Translations under genes and position numbers: made by a program | Assembly (NCBI RefSeq): GCF_988243305.1 | Contig: NZ_OZ547136.1 | Strand: one strand, 5' to 3' | Length of the DNA: 64,000 bases | Shown: positions 1 to 28,046 of the stretch, one piece after another | How the letters are laid out: every line of letters begins with the position of its first letter | Position numbering within the stretch: the stretch's first letter is position 1 | Notes under the pieces: generated by a model | Seen by the model: the letters and a program-made list of their open reading frames with translations, nothing else | The model's database searches: none | Told to the model about the DNA's origin: nothing

Positions 1-1730
1 AAAACAGTGACTCACCCTTTAAAGATGTTTTTTCTAATGCGCATGAAGTCACAGCAGAAACGAAAGAAAATCGAACAATATACACACAGGTATTTGAAAT
101 TGATAATGGCATCGAGAAAAGATGCATTAATCACTGGCATACATTATGCAATCTGCCAGCCAGCGATCATGCTGTTTATATTTGTGGTTGGCAAGATATT
201 ACCGAGACGCGTGATTTAATTCACGCTCTCGAAGTAGAGAGAAATAAAGCGATCAATGCAACTGTCGCAAAAAGTCAGTTTCTGGCAACAATGAGTCACG
301 AAATAAGAACACCAATAAGCTCCATTATGGGCTTCCTGGAACTTCTGTCGGGTTCTGGTCTTAGCAAGGAACAACGGGTGGAGGCGATTTCACTTGCCTA
401 CGCCACCGGACAATCACTCCTCGGCTTAATTGGTGAAATCCTTGATGTCGACAAAATTGAGTCGGGTAACTATCAACTTCAACCACAATGGGTCGATATC
501 CCTACTTTAGTCCAGAACACTTGTCACTCTTTCGGTGCGATTGCTGCAAGCAAATCGATCGCATTAAGTTGCAGCAGTACGTTTCCTGAACATTACCTGG
601 TTAAGATCGACCCTCAGGCGTTTAAGCAGGTCTTATCTAATTTACTGAGCAATGCTCTCAAATTTACCACCGAGGGGGCAGTAAAAATTACGACCTCCCT
701 GGTTAACATTGATGACAACCACGCTGTAATCAAAATGACGATTATGGATTCTGGAAGTGGATTATCACAGGAAGAACAACAACAACTGTTTAAACGCTAT
801 AGCCAAACAAGTGCAGGTCGTCAGCAAACAGGTTCTGGTTTAGGCTTAATGATCTGCAAAGAATTAATTAAAAACATGCAGGGCGATTTGTCATTAGAAA
901 GTCATCCAGGCATAGGAACGACATTTACGATCACAATCCCGGTAGAAATTACCCAACAAGTGGCGACTGTCGAGGCAAAAGCAGAACAACCCATGACACT
1001 CCCTGAAAAGTTGAGCATATTAATCGCGGATGATCATCCGACCAACAGGCTATTACTCAAACGCCAGCTAAACCTATTAGGATATGATGTTGATGAAGCA
1101 ACTGATGGTGTGCAAGCGCTACACAAAGTCAGTATGCAACATTATGATCTGCTTATTACTGACGTTAATATGCCGAATATGGATGGTTTTGAGTTGACTC
1201 GCAAACTCCGTGAGCAAAATTCTTCCTTACCCATCTGGGGGCTTACAGCCAACGCACAGGCTAACGAACGTGAAAAAGGGTTAAATTGCGGCATGAACTT
1301 ATGTTTGTTCAAACCGTTGACCCTGGATGTACTGAAAACACATTTAAGTCAGTTACACCAGGTTGCGCCTATTGCACCTCAGTATCGCCACCTTGATATC
1401 GAGGCCCTGAAAAATAATACGGCGAACGATCTACAACTGATGCAGGAGATTCTCATGACTTTCCAGCATGAAACGCATAAAGATCTACCCGCTGCGTTTC
1501 ATGCACTAGAAGCTGGCGACAACAGAACTTTCCATCAGTGTATTCATCGCATCCACGGTGCAGCTAACATCCTGAATTTGCAAAAGTTGATTAATCTTAG
1601 CCATCAGTTAGAAATAACACCTGTTTCAGATGACAGTAAGCCTGAAATTCTTCAGCTGCTGAACTCTGTTAAAGAACACATTGCAGAGCTGGACCAGGAG
1701 ATAGCTGTTTTCTGTCAACAAAATGACTAA
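1..1730 (+). CDS. evgS: Hybrid sensor histidine kinase EvgS, C-terminal part (5' end lies outside the window)
   Basis: Frame 0 is open from the window edge with no stop until 1728-1730. H-box motif ATMSHEIRTP near 285-315, followed by an ATPase region, a receiver domain (LIADDHPTNR...DVNMPNMDG) and a C-terminal HPt-like segment. Listed ORF 291-1730 is the Met-initiated tail of this longer frame. Confidence 0.9.
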   Translation, partial: NSDSPFKDVFSNAHEVTAETKENRTIYTQVFEIDNGIEKRCINHWHTLCNLPASDHAVYICGWQDITETRDLIHALEVERNKAINATVAKSQFLATMSHEIRTPISSIMGFLELLSGSGLSKEQRVEAISLAYATGQSLLGLIGEILDVDKIESGNYQLQPQWVDIPTLVQNTCHSFGAIAASKSIALSCSSTFPEHYLVKIDPQAFKQVLSNLLSNALKFTTEGAVKITTSLVNIDDNHAVIKMTIMDSGSGLSQEEQQQLFKRYSQTSAGRQQTGSGLGLMICKELIKNMQGDLSLESHPGIGTTFTITIPVEITQQVATVEAKAEQPMTLPEKLSILIADDHPTNRLLLKRQLNLLGYDVDEATDGVQALHKVSMQHYDLLITDVNMPNMDGFELTRKLREQNSSLPIWGLTANAQANEREKGLNCGMNLCLFKPLTLDVLKTHLSQLHQVAPIAPQYRHLDIEALKNNTANDLQLMQEILMTFQHETHKDLPAAFHALEAGDNRTFHQCIHRIHGAANILNLQKLINLSHQLEITPVSDDSKPEILQLLNSVKEHIAELDQEIAVFCQQND

Positions 1731-1736
1731 ATAGCG

Positions 1737-1763
1737 GCTCCCACAATATTCAAATGTGGGAGC
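1737..1763. terminator. Hairpin between convergent evgS and yfdE (GCTCCCACA-loop-TGTGGGAGC), likely bidirectional terminator
   Basis: Perfect 9 bp inverted repeat with 9 nt loop lying between the two convergent stop codons, flanked by A/T-rich sequence. Confidence 0.6.
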
Positions 1764-1785
1764 TATTTACCAGCACATCTTACAT

Positions 1786-2931
1786 TTATGATGAGAACTC
1801 CTGGCGAATTTGTTCCCCATGTTGGTCGAGCGTTGCCGCTCCCGGCATAACATGCGGGTCCGCGCAGCCGCTGATTTTTATCGGATTACCTGGCATCATT
1901 ATTCCCCCGGCTTCAATCAACATATTTCTCGCCTGAGTTTGTGGCAAATTAATGGCCTCAGCCACACTTAATAACGGCGCGACGGGCACACCAACTTCAT
2001 GTATTTTGGCTAACCAAACTTCAGCTGCCTGCGTTTTTAACGTTCGCTCAATATATTGTTTAAGAATAGCCTGGTTTTGTACGCGTAAAATATTGCTGCT
2101 AAATCGGGGATCATTAACCAGTTCCGTAAGCTCCAGTGCCTGGCATAACGCAGAAAAAAGCTTGTCATTACCACAACAAATAGTAATCGGCTTATCCTGA
2201 GTATCAAAAACATCAAAAGGTGCCATGTAGGGATGGCGATTTCCCAGGCGTTGTGGTGACTTCCCTGTCGCAATATATGCCATCAGACCATGCTCCAGAA
2301 AACTCAGCGTGGCATCAAACATCGCTATATCGACATGCGCCCCTCTCTGGCTCTTTTCGCGGCCATAAAGTGCACTCACTATTCCGCTGAATAAATAGAC
2401 ACCGCCACATAAATCCGCAAGAGAGGTACCCACGCGCACTGGCGGAGCATCAGGGTACCCTGTTTCCATCATTATCCCGCTCATTGCCTGAATGATGGTA
2501 TCGTAGGCTGGAGCATCTTTTAGCGGGCCGGTATGCCCAAAACCTGACGATGAAGCATATATGAGACGCGGGTTGATTTCTTGTAGCGTTTCCCATGAAA
2601 ACCCCAGTTTTTCCATTGTACCTGGGCGAAAATTCTCAGCTAATACATCAGCTTGTTTAAGCATATTTATAAATATACTTTTATCGTGATCATTCTTTAA
2701 ATCAAGAACCACACTCTCTTTGCCATGATTAATAAAACTGTAATAGAGTGACTGTCCATCCACATAGGGACCAAATGTGCGGGTATCATCACCATGACCC
2801 GGCGGCTCAACTTTAATTACCCTTGCGCCCATATTACAAAGAAGTTGAGTTCCGAAAGGTCCATTAAGGACATGTGTCATATCGATAACTAATAAGCCTT
2901 CAAACGGCCCTTTGCATTCATTATTTGTCAT
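1786..2931 (-). CDS. yfdE: Acetyl-CoA:oxalate CoA-transferase, family III CoA-transferase
   Basis: ORF 1786-2970; translation matches family III CoA-transferases (CaiB/BaiF-like). I prefer the ATG at 2931 (MTNNECKGPF...) over the upstream GTG at 2970. Confidence 0.85.
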   Translation of the reverse strand: MTNNECKGPFEGLLVIDMTHVLNGPFGTQLLCNMGARVIKVEPPGHGDDTRTFGPYVDGQSLYYSFINHGKESVVLDLKNDHDKSIFINMLKQADVLAENFRPGTMEKLGFSWETLQEINPRLIYASSSGFGHTGPLKDAPAYDTIIQAMSGIMMETGYPDAPPVRVGTSLADLCGGVYLFSGIVSALYGREKSQRGAHVDIAMFDATLSFLEHGLMAYIATGKSPQRLGNRHPYMAPFDVFDTQDKPITICCGNDKLFSALCQALELTELVNDPRFSSNILRVQNQAILKQYIERTLKTQAAEVWLAKIHEVGVPVAPLLSVAEAINLPQTQARNMLIEAGGIMMPGNPIKISGCADPHVMPGAATLDQHGEQIRQEFSS

Positions 2932-2945
2932 TTGCTTATGCCTTG

Positions 2946-2976
2946 AAAAAAGCCGAAGGTGAAAAGACACTTCGGC
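2946..2976 (-). terminator. Stem-loop plus U-tract between yfdV stop and yfdE start (intra-operon terminator or attenuator candidate)
   Basis: On the minus strand, GCCGAAG-loop-CTTCGGC is followed by TTTTTT. It sits between the yfdV stop (3005) and the yfdE start (2931). Confidence 0.5.
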
Positions 2977-3004
2977 ATTTATGTAAAATCAATAACATGA
3001 TTAA

Positions 3005-3949
3005 TTATGAAACCAGTCGACTGACATAAATCCACAAAGGAGCCGTGACGACAAAGCCCAGTACGCTCACAGCCAATGATGCTGTACCAGTGCGGGTGTA
3101 GACATTAAACCGGCTGGCAATAATGATTCCGGAGAATGCCGGCGGTAAGGCGCCTGCCAGTACCATCATCTGCAAATGTTCGCTGTTCAAATGACATGCC
3201 ATACCCACGAGAAGCAGCGCCAGTGGCATCAGAATCAGCTTCAGGAAGGTGTTATAAGCAATTTCAGCACTGAACTCGAATTTATGTGCAGCCAGAGTCA
3301 ACCCCGCAGCGAATACCGCTACCCCTGAGTTAGCCTTCGCAATCAGATTAAAGGTTGGGTCCCATGCTGCCGGAATTTTTACCCCAACCAACACCAGGAT
3401 CGTTGCCAGAACAGGTGCCCATACTACTGGCTCCTTTGCCGCAGAAATTAATGCGCTCAGATTACTATTCTTCTTACCATCTGCTCCTGAGGAAGGATTC
3501 AGCAAATACAGACCAATAGGAATAGTAATTGCGTTAACAATAATAGAAATAATTGCTACAACTAAACCTGTTGATACGGAATCACCATAAATAGGATCGA
3601 GAACTGCAAATCCCAGGAATCCGATGGTAGGTGAACCTGCAATTAATGCACATACTGCTGCTTCTGCATGAGTACGTTTAAAAAATTTGTAGCAACCAAA
3701 CCAGGAGAAAAAGAAACATCCGACAATAACCACAAGTGATACAAGGGTCAGGCGAGTGTCCGCAAAAATCATTTCCCTGTTTGCCCGGGTAATAGAAACA
3801 AATAGGGCCGCAGGAAGAGCGTAGTTTAATACCAGTTTATTAAATGCCCGGGCTTGATCTTCTGAAAAAGTTTCTCGTCTGCCGCTAAAATAACCCAACA
3901 GCATGATTACGATAATAGGCAATAAATCGCCAATAAAAAATGTTAGCAT
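3005..3949 (-). CDS. yfdV: AEC-family (auxin efflux carrier-like) membrane transporter, putative oxalate/formate-linked
   Basis: 314 aa polytopic hydrophobic ORF; sits in an operon between oxc and yfdE. Confidence 0.85.
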
Positions 3950-4017
3950 AATAGTATTTCCGATAAGGGTCCCCTCACCATCGATAATGAGTTGGCAAGA
4001 GGAGACGATGTCAGTAT

Positions 4018-5712
4018 TTAATTACCAGCGACTTGTTTTGGGTTAAGTTTGGTAATATGGCCACTTTCAGTTCCTGCTGCAGGGTCGATGACCACATTAA
4101 TAATGGTCGGTTTGCGCGACTGAATACCGGTGGTTAAAGCATGACGAAGTTCATCTGTCGTAGTGACGTTATAGCCAACGCCACGAAACGCATCCATTAA
4201 TTTGTCATACCTTGCATGGTGCAATAGATCTGTTGGTGATGGTGCACCAGCGCCACTGAGATCAACACCGTCTCCTCTGTAGATGCCGCCATTATTAAAA
4301 ATAACGATCGTCACCGGCAGGTTATATCGACAAATCGTTTCAATCTCCATCCCACTGAAACCAAAAGCACTATCACCTTCAATGGCGACAACCGGAGAAC
4401 CAGAGGTCACGCTAGCACCGATGGCATAGCCCATACCGATGCCCATGACACCCCAGGTACCACAATCCAGACGGCGACGTGGTTTATACATATCAATAAT
4501 ATTTCGTGCATTATCCAGGGTATTTGCACCTTCATTAACTAAATAAATATCCTGGTTCTCGCGCAATACATCGCGCACAGCACTTAATGCATTAAAGTAA
4601 TTTAATGGTTGAGTATCTGTACTTAATTTTTCATGCATTTTTTGTGCATTTTGCTGCTTGTGGATATTTAAAATATCGCGCCATACCAGTGGAGTCGTAA
4701 ATGTGTTTTGTTTCAGTTCTGCCAGCATACCTTGCATACTGGATGCAATATCGCCAACGACTGGCACAGCAATGGGGCGGTTGCTGTCAATTTCCTGCGG
4801 TTCAATATCCAGTTGAATAAACTGTGTATCTGCCGCCCATCCTTTTTTACCGTGTGCCAGTAACCAATTCAGTCGTGCACCAACAAGCATGACAACGTCA
4901 GCATTTGCCAGGGCAAACGAACGCGCAGTTGCCGCAGAAAGTGGATGTGTATCTTCGAGGATCCCTTTCGCCATAGACATTGGCAGGAATGGAATCTGGG
5001 CACTTTCAATAAATTCACGAAGCTGTTCATCCGCTTGTGAATACGCCGCGCCTTTGCCAAGGATAACTAATGGTCGTTCAGCTTTTGCTAAAAGCGAAAT
5101 TGCGCTAGTGACTGACTTCGGGCATGGCAATAATGCTGGCGACGGATTTTCAACTTTTACAATCGTGGTTAACGCTTCGTCTTTTTCCATCGTCGCGGCC
5201 AGGACATTTGCTGGTAAATCAAGATAAACTCCGCCAGGGCGACCCGATACTGAGACCCGGATAGCGCGTGCCAATGCAATGCCAAGATCCTGCGGCTGAT
5301 TAACGCGAAATGCTGCTTTGGCATACGGTTTTGCCGCATTCATTTGGTCCAGCTCTTCATAATCACCTTGCTGTAGGTCGACGATCGCGCGGTCGCTGGA
5401 GCCGCTAATCATGATCATCGGAAAACCATTTACCGTTGCGTTGGCCAATGCGGTCAAACCATTGAGGAATCCTGGCGCAGACACTGTCAGGCAGATCCCT
5501 GGTTTTTGGGTAAGAAAACCGCTTGCCGCAGCGGCATAGCCTGCCGACTGCTCATGACGAAAACCAATATAACGAATGCCTTCCGCCTGGGCATGGCGTG
5601 CCATATCCGTCACAGGAATACCTACAACACCATAAATAGTGTCAATATTATTCTGTTTTAATGCTTCAACGATGATATGCATACCATCTGTCATTTGAAG
5701 TTGATCTGACAT
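4018..5712 (-). CDS. oxc: Oxalyl-CoA decarboxylase (thiamine-diphosphate dependent)
   Basis: 564 aa ORF with ThDP-enzyme architecture including a [14 protein letters not shown]-type ThDP-binding motif. Confidence 0.9.
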
Positions 5713-5765
5713 GATTAATAACCTCGAAATTTTTATAAATTGGGAGCCAGAAGCCCCCGTTAATA

Positions 5766-7016
5766 TCAGATGGCGTGGTTTTGCTTCATTGCAGCAATTT
5801 CATCGTCGCTATAACCCAGCTCCTGCAATACCACAGCGGTATGTTCACCTAATAGCGGCGCAGCTTTAATATCCGGCGTAAAGGCAGAGAATTTCATTGG
5901 ACAACCAACTGTCAGATATTTTCCACGCAACGGTTGTTCCACTTCAACAACACTGCCACTTTGGCGCAAAGAGGGATCAAGTGAAATTTCTTTCATACTT
6001 AAAACCGGTGCACAAGGAATATCAAACTGAGTCAAATAGGCCACTGCTTCATGTTTATCAATAGTGACAGTGTATTTTTCGATTTCAGCAAAAATATCGA
6101 AAATATGTGGCTGTCGGGCATGGGCTGTACTGTATGCCGGATCGGTAATCCAATCTGGTTTGCCGATGGCTTTACAGGTGTTTTCCCAGTTTTGCTCCTG
6201 AATAGTGAAATAAATATAGGCATTAGGATCGGTTTCCCAGCCTTTACATTTCAGGATCCAGCCAGGCTGACCGCCACCACCCGCATTACCACCGCGGGGA
6301 ACTGCATCACCAAATGTGCCATTCGGATACTGCGGGTATTCTTCCAGATAACCCAATTTATCGAGACGCTGCTGGTCGCGTAATTTCACGCGGCAAAGGT
6401 TCAATACGGCATCCTGCATTGACATGGTGACTCGTTGCCCACGCCCCGTTTTTTCGCGATGCAGCAAAGCAGCAAGTAAACCGATCAGTAAATGCATTCC
6501 GGTGTTGCTGTCACCCAACGCTGCAGCGCTTACCAGCGGCGGACCGTCCCAAAACCCCGTAGTGGATGCCGCGCCACCCGCTGCCTGAGCAACGTTTTCA
6601 TAGGCTTTTACATTCACATAAGGCGAACACTCATCAAACCCTTTGATCGAACCAAAAATCAGACGTGGATTGATTTCTTGAATATGCTCCCAGGTGAAGC
6701 CCATGTGATCAATGGCCCCTGGATGAAAGTTCTCGACTAAGATATCAGCTTCGCGGATCAGCTTTTCCATTACCTCTTTGCCTTCCGCTGTTTTGGTATT
6801 TAATTCAATAGAACGTTTGTTACTGTTAAGCATGGTGAAGTAAAGCGCATCGATATCAGGAATATCTCGCAGCTGGTGACGCGTTACGTCACCAACGCCG
6901 GGACGTTCAATTTTAATGACGTCAGCGCCAAACCAGGCCAGCATTTGAGTACAAGATGGGCCAGATTGCACACCGGTGAAATCGAGAACTTTAATTCCTT
7001 GAAGTGGAGTTGACAT
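5766..7016 (-). CDS. frc: Formyl-CoA:oxalate CoA-transferase
   Basis: 416 aa family III CoA-transferase immediately upstream of oxc in the same orientation. Confidence 0.9.
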
Positions 7017-7267
7017 AGCAATACCTATTAGTTAATTAAATATATGTTAATTTAGCGTTTATTTAAGGCATAACGCCCTCTATAAATAATCCGCAAAATA
7101 TCGTCGTAGCTGCACTCGATATTTTTAAATTCCTGTATCAAGTGCTGAAAATCATTTCATCGCCACTTCCAATTCCTTTCTGCATGGTAAGTAGTGAGGA
7201 CGAAAAGAAGAATATGATAAATATTGGTTCGCGGTAATCAGAGAGAGCCGCGACATTTGTGATGTTA

Positions 7268-7285
7268 TTCTTACAACTGTAAGAA
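7268..7285. promoter_or_regulatory. EvgA-box-like inverted repeat TTCTTACA-AC-TGTAAGAA upstream of frc
   Basis: Perfect 8-2-8 palindrome matching the EvgA consensus (TTCPyTACA N2 TGTAPuGAA), about 250 bp upstream of the frc start. Confidence 0.6.
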
Positions 7286-7528
7286 GCGCCGGTGATTTAC
7301 AAGTAAGGGTATGATTACGCCTTTTAAAGCGTACCATAAAACATAACATAATAAATGATTTGTGATGACACGGGATTATTGCGGTTTACTTTGAGGAAGA
7401 TAAAATGCGAGTTTATAGAACCGCGAGCGCCAAATAATTTTATGACCACAACCTGTCGTATTGTGGTCATAAAAAATTGTCGGCTGGAGGGAGTTAAATC
7501 CTTTACCTCAATATACTGCCTGTCAGCG

Positions 7529-8161
7529 TTAGTTCACAAACAGTGCTTCGCTATCGACGATGATTCCATCTTCCGCACCTTTAAGCGCCAGGTTTGCCTC
7601 GTAGTATTGCTTTTTATCAAGCAGTTTCTGCGCATCAGCAAGTGCATTACGAGTCTGTTTGAGCGGCATCAGATATTGGTTTTCCATTACGCCAACACCG
7701 GCCAGGCGCAGCTCTTCCATTGCGCCCTTTTTATCCCCTTTCGCCATTTTTTCGTTGGCAATTTTTATCGCGGCTTCTTTTTCGGGTGTCGCTACATAAC
7801 TCTCAGAAATTCCGACAGATGCATTAATGACAATATATTGGTCATCATTGACATTGGTCTTTTTACCTGGCTTAGCGAACTTTGCCCATTCGGTACTGTC
7901 ATCTGACAACAAAGCTGAAGCTTCATTGGTCAGTTCTTTTGCCTTTTCCGGATCGCCATGAAACAGAGCCAAGCGCGCTACCTGCACGTCACGCATCGCA
8001 TATAAACCTTGTTCAGAGATACGCTCTGCTGCTGCCGTTTTCTGGGTTTGCTGAACTTGCTGAGTTTGCTGTTGTGCCGCTACCGGTGCATTATCAGCCG
8101 CCCATACAGTTGAAGATGCCAGAATTGCTGTGACCATCGTAGCCATAATTAAACGTTTCAT
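7529..8161 (-). CDS. yfdX: YfdX-family periplasmic protein (EvgA-induced)
   Basis: 210 aa ORF with an N-terminal signal peptide ([21 protein letters not shown]) and a Q-rich region. Confidence 0.8.
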
Positions 8162-8258
8162 ACTTACCTCATTCTTTAACAGTTTTAGAAAACGCCGCCA
8201 TCATATTGGGTGAGCATGAAATGAGAAATCAGAGAGCAACGGTCATTTTGAAAGGGTT

Positions 8259-8276
8259 ATCTTACAGTTGTAGTTA
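8259..8276. promoter_or_regulatory. EvgA-box-like site (TCTTACA-GT-TGTAGTTA) upstream of yfdX
   Basis: Imperfect 8-2-8 inverted repeat of the EvgA-box type in the yfdX-ypdI divergent intergenic region. Confidence 0.45.
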
Positions 8277-8296
8277 TTATCGCAAGAAGTATTTTA

Positions 8297-8314
8297 GTCT
8301 TACAATTGTAGGAA
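8297..8314. promoter_or_regulatory. EvgA-box-like site (GTCTTACA-AT-TGTAGGAA) upstream of yfdX
   Basis: Second near-consensus EvgA-type palindrome, about 140 bp upstream of the yfdX start. Confidence 0.5.
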
Positions 8315-8456
8315 TATGCTTCCTGTCACAGAGAACTATTCTTATATACCAAAAAGAGATGTCATTTATTATATCGATGTAAATACTGATTAATTATATG
8401 TAAATACAGCAATAACGTCGTAGGTTTTCAGTGAACCATTTTCAGGATAACTTTCT

Positions 8457-8732
8457 ATGAAAGTAAACTTAATGCTTTTTAGCTTATTTTTATTGGTCTC
8501 TATTATGGCATGCAATGTTTTTGCATTTTCTATTTCTGGTGGTGGTAGTGAGGCGAGCTATAAAGAGACGGAAAAAACGTCAGCGATGACGACAACTCAC
8601 TCTACAAAATTTCAGCCATCACAGGCGATTTTGTTAAAAATGAGAGAAGATGCGCCACCATTAAACCTCACAGAAGAAATTCCGCCCCCTTTTCCGACAA
8701 AGGCGAATTATCTTATCCATCCTGTGCGATAG
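8457..8732 (+). CDS. ypdI: Small putative lipoprotein YpdI
   Basis: 91 aa ORF; signal peptide ending in a lipobox-like ...IMAC. Confidence 0.7.
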   Translation: MKVNLMLFSLFLLVSIMACNVFAFSISGGGSEASYKETEKTSAMTTTHSTKFQPSQAILLKMREDAPPLNLTEEIPPPFPTKANYLIHPVR

Positions 8733-28014: not shown

Positions 28015-28046
28015 TAAAAAAGCCGGGGATCATTCCCCGGCTTTTT
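28015..28046. terminator. Bidirectional rho-independent terminator between nupC and pdeA (AAAAAAGCCGGGGAtcaTTCCCCGGCTTTTTT)
   Basis: GC-rich hairpin flanked by an A-tract and a T-tract between the convergent stops. Confidence 0.85.

Follow-up and report, generated by a model that had tools for sequence, protein, structure and literature searches.

A terminator-like hairpin between two genes of one operon raises the question of how much of the transcript continues into the second gene. Such a hairpin was described in an earlier note on this DNA, which placed a GCCGAAG/CTTCGGC stem followed by TTTTTT on the minus strand, in the 73-bp gap between yfdV and yfdE, and proposed either partial termination that lowers yfdE or a separate yfdE transcription unit. 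The sequence and an exact pattern search agree on the element itself; the two proposed consequences fare differently.

Layout of the yfdV-yfdE junction

The window (the whole stretch of 64,000 nucleotides that was analysed) comes from an Escherichia coli chromosome. Over the yfdV-yfdE junction it is 100% identical to strain Res13-Lact-PER13-34, and its identity to K-12 is about 98.5%. Gene names are those of the RefSeq annotation of the identical sequence, and K-12 coordinates equal window positions plus 2,486,237, an offset derived from gene ends. The RefSeq annotation and the list of open reading frames place frc (7016-5766) and oxc (5712-4018) on the minus strand, followed by yfdV (3005-3949, 314 aa, with its TAA stop at 3007-3005) and yfdE (1786-2931, 381 aa, with its ATG at 2931-2929), both also on the minus strand. 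Together the four genes form the oxalate acid-resistance operon of E. coli, with yfdV and yfdE last. YfdV has 100% amino acid identity to its K-12 counterpart, and YfdE is an acetyl-CoA:oxalate CoA-transferase (PMC3720670). The convergent gene evgS ends at 1730 in the RefSeq annotation. The longest open reading frame for yfdE (394 aa) begins at a GTG at 2970 on the minus strand, within the 5' arm of the hairpin, but this is not the annotated start; annotated and crystallised YfdE begins at ATG 2931 (381 aa), leaving a gap of 73 nt from the yfdV stop (3005).

The sequence GCCGAAGTGTCTTTTCACCTTCGGCTTTTTT lies at 2976-2946 on the minus strand and has one copy in the window by exact pattern search. 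Read along the minus strand, the junction consists of the yfdV stop codon UAA, 28 nt, GCCGAAGUGUCUUUUCACCUUCGGC, UUUUUU, CAAGGCAUAAGCAA, and the yfdE AUG. The 28 nt form an A+U-rich linker (2977-3004) between the yfdV stop and the hairpin, so that the element is wholly within the spacer and outside coding sequence. The 5' arm of the stem, GCCGAAG (2970-2976), and the 3' arm, CUUCGGC (2952-2958), enclose an apical part (2959-2969) in which RNAfold predicts a bulged C, two further pairs beyond it (UG/CA), and the loop UCUUUU. The terminal GC of the 3' arm adjoins the U6 tract (2946-2951; K-12 2489183-2489188), which is the predicted region of transcript release. A minus-strand AAGG at 2941-2944, 9 nt 5' of the ATG, is the likely Shine-Dalgarno sequence of yfdE; it starts 2 nt past the U-tract, and the predicted fold leaves it unpaired and thus free of the hairpin.

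The RNAfold structure is a perfect 7-bp stem with five G-C pairs and the two apical pairs, with a free energy of −12.4 kcal/mol and a z-score of −3.0 relative to dinucleotide shuffles. Stem pair probabilities are 0.63-1.0 in a 231-nt context and also in nascent RNA ending at the U-tract. The loop has 6 nt if the two apical pairs across the bulged C form and 11 nt otherwise; loops of intrinsic terminators typically have 3-8 nt. The U-tract begins at the first base past the stem and gives six U in the first eight positions, with a T-weight of 4.23. Efficient termination has been reported to require GC(U)7RU at the bubble edges (the HUB motif; bioRxiv 10.64898/2026.05.29.728758). Against this motif the element reads GC-UUUUUU-C-A-A: the -11G, -10C, and -2 purine match, six of the seven U are present, and the -1U is absent, so that three of the four bubble-edge positions are matched.

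A standard terminator scan of the window did not list this site because the scan is limited to loops of 3-8 nt without bulges. Other identities for the structure were considered and set aside. An Rfam scan of 1500-8500 at E ≤ 1 returned a spurious rRNA fragment alone and no relevant match; there was thus no covariance-model match to a riboswitch, leader, or attenuator, and no competing fold was found. No anti-terminator fold was seen in the predicted ensemble, which is dominated by the terminator stem with a probability of about 1. A REP- or BIME-type repeat was rejected because the sequence is single-copy, with one occurrence in the window and, across E. coli genomes, a median of one location.

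Terminator motifs in the window and conservation of the hairpin

Both strands of the window were examined with a custom scan for perfect stems of 7 bp or more that contain four or more G-C pairs, enclose a loop of 3-12 nt, and are followed immediately by seven positions with six or more T. The scan found six sites in the 64 kb, compared to 0.16 ± 0.44 expected from 100 dinucleotide-preserving shuffles, and for a pattern search for the yfdV-yfdE element with up to two mismatches the chance expectation was 0.00. The yfdV-yfdE hairpin is not a chance motif. The remaining five sites are all at gene 3' ends: those of nupC and pdeA, where a single bidirectional site was found on both strands, and those of gltX, cysK, and crr; therefore, motifs of this quality mark transcript ends in this genome. 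The yfdV-yfdE site is the only one of the six within an annotated operon.

The element belongs to the same motif class as the five window terminators and has a comparable core hairpin energy, although its −11.2 kcal/mol is near the weak end of their range (−9.2 to −17.7 kcal/mol). The five have complementary A-tracts and loops that are 4 nt long or otherwise regular, and they are located at the ends of transcription units, whereas the yfdV-yfdE element has a bulge, a bigger loop, and a partial A-tract (AAAU), and is located inside an operon. The bidirectional site, at 28021-28042 between the convergent nupC and pdeA, is a perfect terminator with the arrangement A6-GCCGGGG-loop-CCCCGGC-U6, and the window does not have the IS186 copy that is present at this spot in K-12.

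Motifs of a hairpin followed by U5 also occur in the K-12 same-strand spacers zipA>ligA and cysA>cysM (record L104, 35178-35247 and 44585-44717). Terminator-like hairpins are therefore common between co-directional genes in this region, and the presence of one tells little by itself about regulatory importance. Within a small control set of K-12 same-strand spacers, hairpins, some of them U5-tailed, were common in spacers of at least about 60 nt, and none was found in shorter ones.

K-12 MG1655 has exactly the same 73-nt spacer, and an 85-nt query from the junction had zero mismatches in 4,440 of 5,405 E. coli records (~82%). Single-nucleotide changes, sampled from 7 of the 965 variant E. coli records, were at 3002 and 2990 in the linker, 2967 (T>C) in the loop, and 2940, with none in the stem or the U-tract. 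A divergent Escherichia (L035), with a YfdE that is 96% identical, keeps GCCGAAG/CUUCGGC and has an altered apex and U7. Two Escherichia-like loci with 89% identity in YfdE, one from a record titled Yersinia vastinensis (L003) and one from a metagenomic contig (L103), have ACCGAAGUA-CAUAUUU-UACUUCGGU followed by A and U8. In these two, both bases of the basal G-C pair have changed to give A-U, the apex has a new sequence that still pairs, and the U-tract has grown; the 28-nt linker has accumulated numerous substitutions and an indel. Pairing is likewise retained in the apical part of L035 despite the difference in sequence. At the level of sequence, a kept stem, a compensatory change, and a longer U-tract are the pattern expected from selection on a terminator. 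A 3'-UTR-derived Hfq-binding small RNA would be expected to have a terminator hairpin with a long U tail, Hfq binding, and a conserved seed; the element has a hairpin and a U6 tail, and the 28 nt upstream are poorly kept in L003.

Expression along the operon and probable partial termination

Arrays comparing an evgS-constitutive S600I mutant with the wild type were reported by Johnson et al. 2014 (PMC4283999, Table S4), with log2 fold changes of 8.37 for frc, 6.97 for yfdX, 6.59 for oxc, 6.16 for yfdV, and 3.57 for yfdE. The steps along frc-oxc-yfdV-yfdE are 1.8, 0.4, and 2.6 log2, with the largest (about 6-fold) at yfdV-yfdE; these are array fold changes rather than abundances, and any one of three other causes could produce a step at this junction: background of the array probes, a distal segment that decays more rapidly, or convergent transcription of evgS that interferes. 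The sizes of the three steps rank with the T-weights of the U-rich tails in the corresponding spacers (1.05, 0.32, and 4.23). Smaller steps are seen in other EvgA-dependent operons in the same data, with 1.4 log2 for emrK>emrY and 0.6 log2 for mdtE>mdtF. Expression of yfdE is still induced about 12-fold in the mutant, and therefore some transcripts read through from the operon promoter.

Other published data add little at this junction. The Term-seq list of PMC7815308, from cells in LB and M63, includes no 3' end on the minus strand at yfdV or yfdE, which is uninformative because the operon needs EvgA activation and is probably silent in such media. An array table in PMC5811628 has internally inconsistent values for frc and oxc and does not include yfdV or yfdE. 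A literature search returned no paper linking yfdE, yfdV, and "terminator," and searches by gene name returned nothing on transcript ends.

The element is probably a partial intrinsic (Rho-independent) terminator of moderate strength within the EvgA-activated frc-oxc-yfdV-yfdE unit. Of the two consequences proposed in the earlier note, a lowering of yfdE by partial termination is thus the better supported, by the canonical motif, its position, the compensatory change, and the coincidence with the largest expression step, while the proposal of a separate yfdE unit is not supported. With six of seven U, a missing -1U, and an irregular apex, leaky termination is predicted, which matches the step of about 6-fold as well as the remaining induction of yfdE. 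The cause of the step is presumably termination rather than decay, and an efficiency of roughly 50-85% would be implied.

In the proposed sequence of events, the GC-rich hairpin would fold in the nascent RNA while RNA polymerase transcribes the U6 tract, and a fraction of transcripts would be released. Because the hairpin begins 28 nt past the yfdV stop, a ribosome terminating there should not block its folding, and melting of the hairpin by ribosomes at this stop was judged unlikely at such a distance. The released transcripts would be frc-oxc-yfdV mRNAs with a hairpin cap that may protect them against 3' exonucleases. Polymerases that read through would produce the full-length mRNA, and since the AAGG is unpaired and past the U-tract, these transcripts should be independently translatable, with yfdE probably served by this site of its own. 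The net result would be less of YfdE, an accessory "priming" CoA-transferase, than of Frc, Oxc, and YfdV. The accessory role proposed for YfdE is to prime the Frc/Oxc cycle with oxalyl-CoA (PMC3720670); a lower amount of YfdE would agree with this role, which may supply the physiological rationale. If confirmed, the terminator would explain why yfdE responds to EvgS activation about 6-fold less than its neighbours. The annotation of a yfdXWUVE or frc-oxc-yfdVE operon would then change to two transcripts, a predominant frc-oxc-yfdV mRNA and a less abundant full-length mRNA, which is relevant to reporters or deletions at this junction and to engineered oxalate degradation in E. coli.

Partial intrinsic terminators inside operons are well known in E. 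coli, for example the rplL-rpoB attenuator and the rpsU-dnaG terminator. As in these, the yfdV-yfdE spacer has a GC-rich hairpin with an adjacent U-tract, followed by a distal gene with its own ribosome-binding site that would be expressed at a lower level through read-through. The yfdV-yfdE element differs in its shorter U-tract (6 U) and irregular apex, and as a terminator it is predicted from sequence. The tuning of downstream expression by terminators has also been described recently (bioRxiv 10.64898/2026.05.29.728758). A leaky terminator at this position is ordinary fine-tuning of an operon, a well-known kind of element that involves no new mechanism, and it leaves current views of termination and of acid resistance as they are.

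Distant relatives and alternative functions

More distant comparisons used 14 loci with the order frc-oxc-yfdV-yfdE (including the window), which are mostly metagenomic contigs and are not phylogenetically independent; many of them also have yfdX and evgAS. A stable hairpin is present in the yfdV-yfdE spacer in 13 of the 14, with a median best energy of −15.8 kcal/mol and a mean z-score for spacer folding of −2.7. The hairpins of the distant relatives are unrelated in sequence, cannot be aligned, and usually have no U-tract. A U-rich tail (at least six U in eight) was found in four of the 14 loci, namely the window, L035, L003, and Orbus (L030), which counts against the terminator reading, since the broadly conserved feature is then the hairpin and not the terminator.

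The other two spacers have minus-strand hairpins as well, each with a structure conserved in 13-14 relatives. The frc-oxc hairpin, GGGGGCUUCUGGCUCCC (5742-5758), has a weak U-rich tail, AAUUUAU, and the oxc-yfdV hairpin (3969-4006) has no U-tract. Mean folding z-scores are −1.9 for the frc-oxc spacer and −2.7 for the oxc-yfdV spacer, and none of these 28 spacers in the 14 loci has a tail of at least six U in eight. In the frc-oxc hairpin, the GGAGC...GCUCC core is kept and double changes occur at three of seven pairs. What is conserved across the order is thus a predicted hairpin after each cistron, and the terminator form of the last one is largely an Escherichia trait.

The strongest of the alternatives follows from this pattern. 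The yfdV-yfdE hairpin could be mainly an RNA-stability or processing element that sets segmental half-lives, with little real termination, either by blocking 3'-5' exonucleases once an endonuclease has cut the transcript or by capping the 5' end of a processed yfdE mRNA. In about 14 relatives each of the three junctions has a hairpin, mostly without a U-tract, which suggests that the conserved function needs the hairpin alone, and the A+U-rich linker upstream, probably single-stranded, resembles a segment accessible to RNase E. Intercistronic stabilising hairpins are known from E. coli, such as the REP elements of malE-malF, where a stem-loop after a cistron may shield it from 3' exonucleases and give segments of different stability; the hairpin-only versions in distant relatives resemble these. 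Unlike REP or BIME elements, the yfdV-yfdE element is single-copy and has a canonical U-tract in Escherichia. This U-tract adjoins the stem directly and is either preserved or extended (U6, U7, and U8), which a decay barrier would not need, and the motif equals that of bona fide terminators in the window. Stabilisation as the main function is therefore unlikely, though far from negligible; the two roles are compatible, and because terminated transcripts would be protected by their 3' hairpin, a decay barrier would complement termination rather than exclude it.

A broader and distinctly improbable proposal is that the hairpins at the three spacers act as graded "punctuation" that fixes Frc > Oxc ~ YfdV > YfdE across Enterobacterales, with the last, in Escherichia, being a conditional terminator. 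Read-through would then be modulated, for example, by acid stress, by oxalate, by Hfq or an sRNA that binds the U-tailed 3' end, or by convergent evgS transcription. If this were true, the priming activity of YfdE could be switched on apart from the core cycle.

The hairpin could instead be relevant on the plus strand, as a bidirectional terminator that halts antisense transcription originating inside yfdE or in evgS read-through, ahead of yfdV, oxc, and frc. On the plus strand, the hairpin has an equally good predicted fold (−13.8 kcal/mol), next to which stands AUUUAUGU, with five U in eight; in addition, the evgS terminator is weak. A hairpin, GCUCCCACA-N9-UGUGGGAGC (1737-1763), is common to the convergent ends of yfdE and evgS and has weak U tails on both strands; the internal terminator motif of the operon is therefore better than the terminal one. 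The sole local entry in Supplementary file 2 of PMC7815308 is a Rho termination region at K-12 2488340 on the plus strand, antisense to yfdE, an observation consistent with evgS read-through. This region points to antisense transcription at the locus, but with the hairpin about 850 nt farther on, little of that transcription should extend so far. The tail on the plus strand is also poor (T-weight 1.84, compared to 4.23 on the minus strand), and the long U-tracts of the relatives are on the minus strand, which makes a plus-strand function very unlikely.

A complete terminator that ends an frc-oxc-yfdV operon, with yfdE as an independent unit under its own promoter, would correspond to the separate yfdE unit of the earlier note. 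The best intrinsic-terminator motif of the locus does precede yfdE rather than follow it. However, the U-tract and the ATG are just 14 nt apart, and no minus-strand sigma-70-like site was found from 2950 to about 3300, a region of about 350 bp upstream of the hairpin. The sole nearby match (2949-2920, minus strand) would begin transcription within yfdE, and minor-sigma SELEX peaks at the locus (PMC5493296) are in oxc and frc and not at the yfdV-yfdE junction. In addition, yfdE is co-induced with the operon, about 12-fold, in the evgS-constitutive mutant, and yfdWUVE have been treated as co-expressed (PMC3720670). A separate yfdE promoter was rejected on these grounds, and an independent yfdE unit is highly improbable.

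Gene order is variable among relatives: Providencia has oxc-yfdV-frc-yfdE, with a short frc-yfdE spacer without a hairpin, and many Burkholderiales do not have yfdV; these differences imply that the operon was reassembled during evolution. That the hairpin is fortuitous or a vestige, such as the remnant of an ancestral operon end predating the addition of yfdE, would fit this history but has scant probability given the negligible chance expectation, the invariance of the spacer in most E. coli, the compensatory change and retained U-tract in relatives, and the expression step at the element.

Two of the compared records have features of their own. In E. coli ETEC1701 (L102, NZ_CP122938.1), an IS200C with annotated tnpA (1565-2290) is inserted directly past the last U of the U6 tract, corresponding to a site between window positions 2946 and 2945. 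The hairpin and U6 are upstream of the insertion and CAAGGCATAAGCAAATG, with the yfdE ribosome-binding site and start, is downstream, making this strain a natural insertion mutant of the yfdV-yfdE junction. The record titled Yersinia vastinensis (NZ_CACVAF010000001.1) has an Escherichia-like evgS-yfdE-yfdV-oxc-frc cluster at 390-7438, with the same yfdE/evgS hairpin. Its Frc, Oxc, YfdV, and YfdE are 96%, 91%, 93%, and 89% identical to those of E. coli, which is far above expectation for Yersinia and may reflect horizontal transfer, or else contamination or mislabelling of the assembly.
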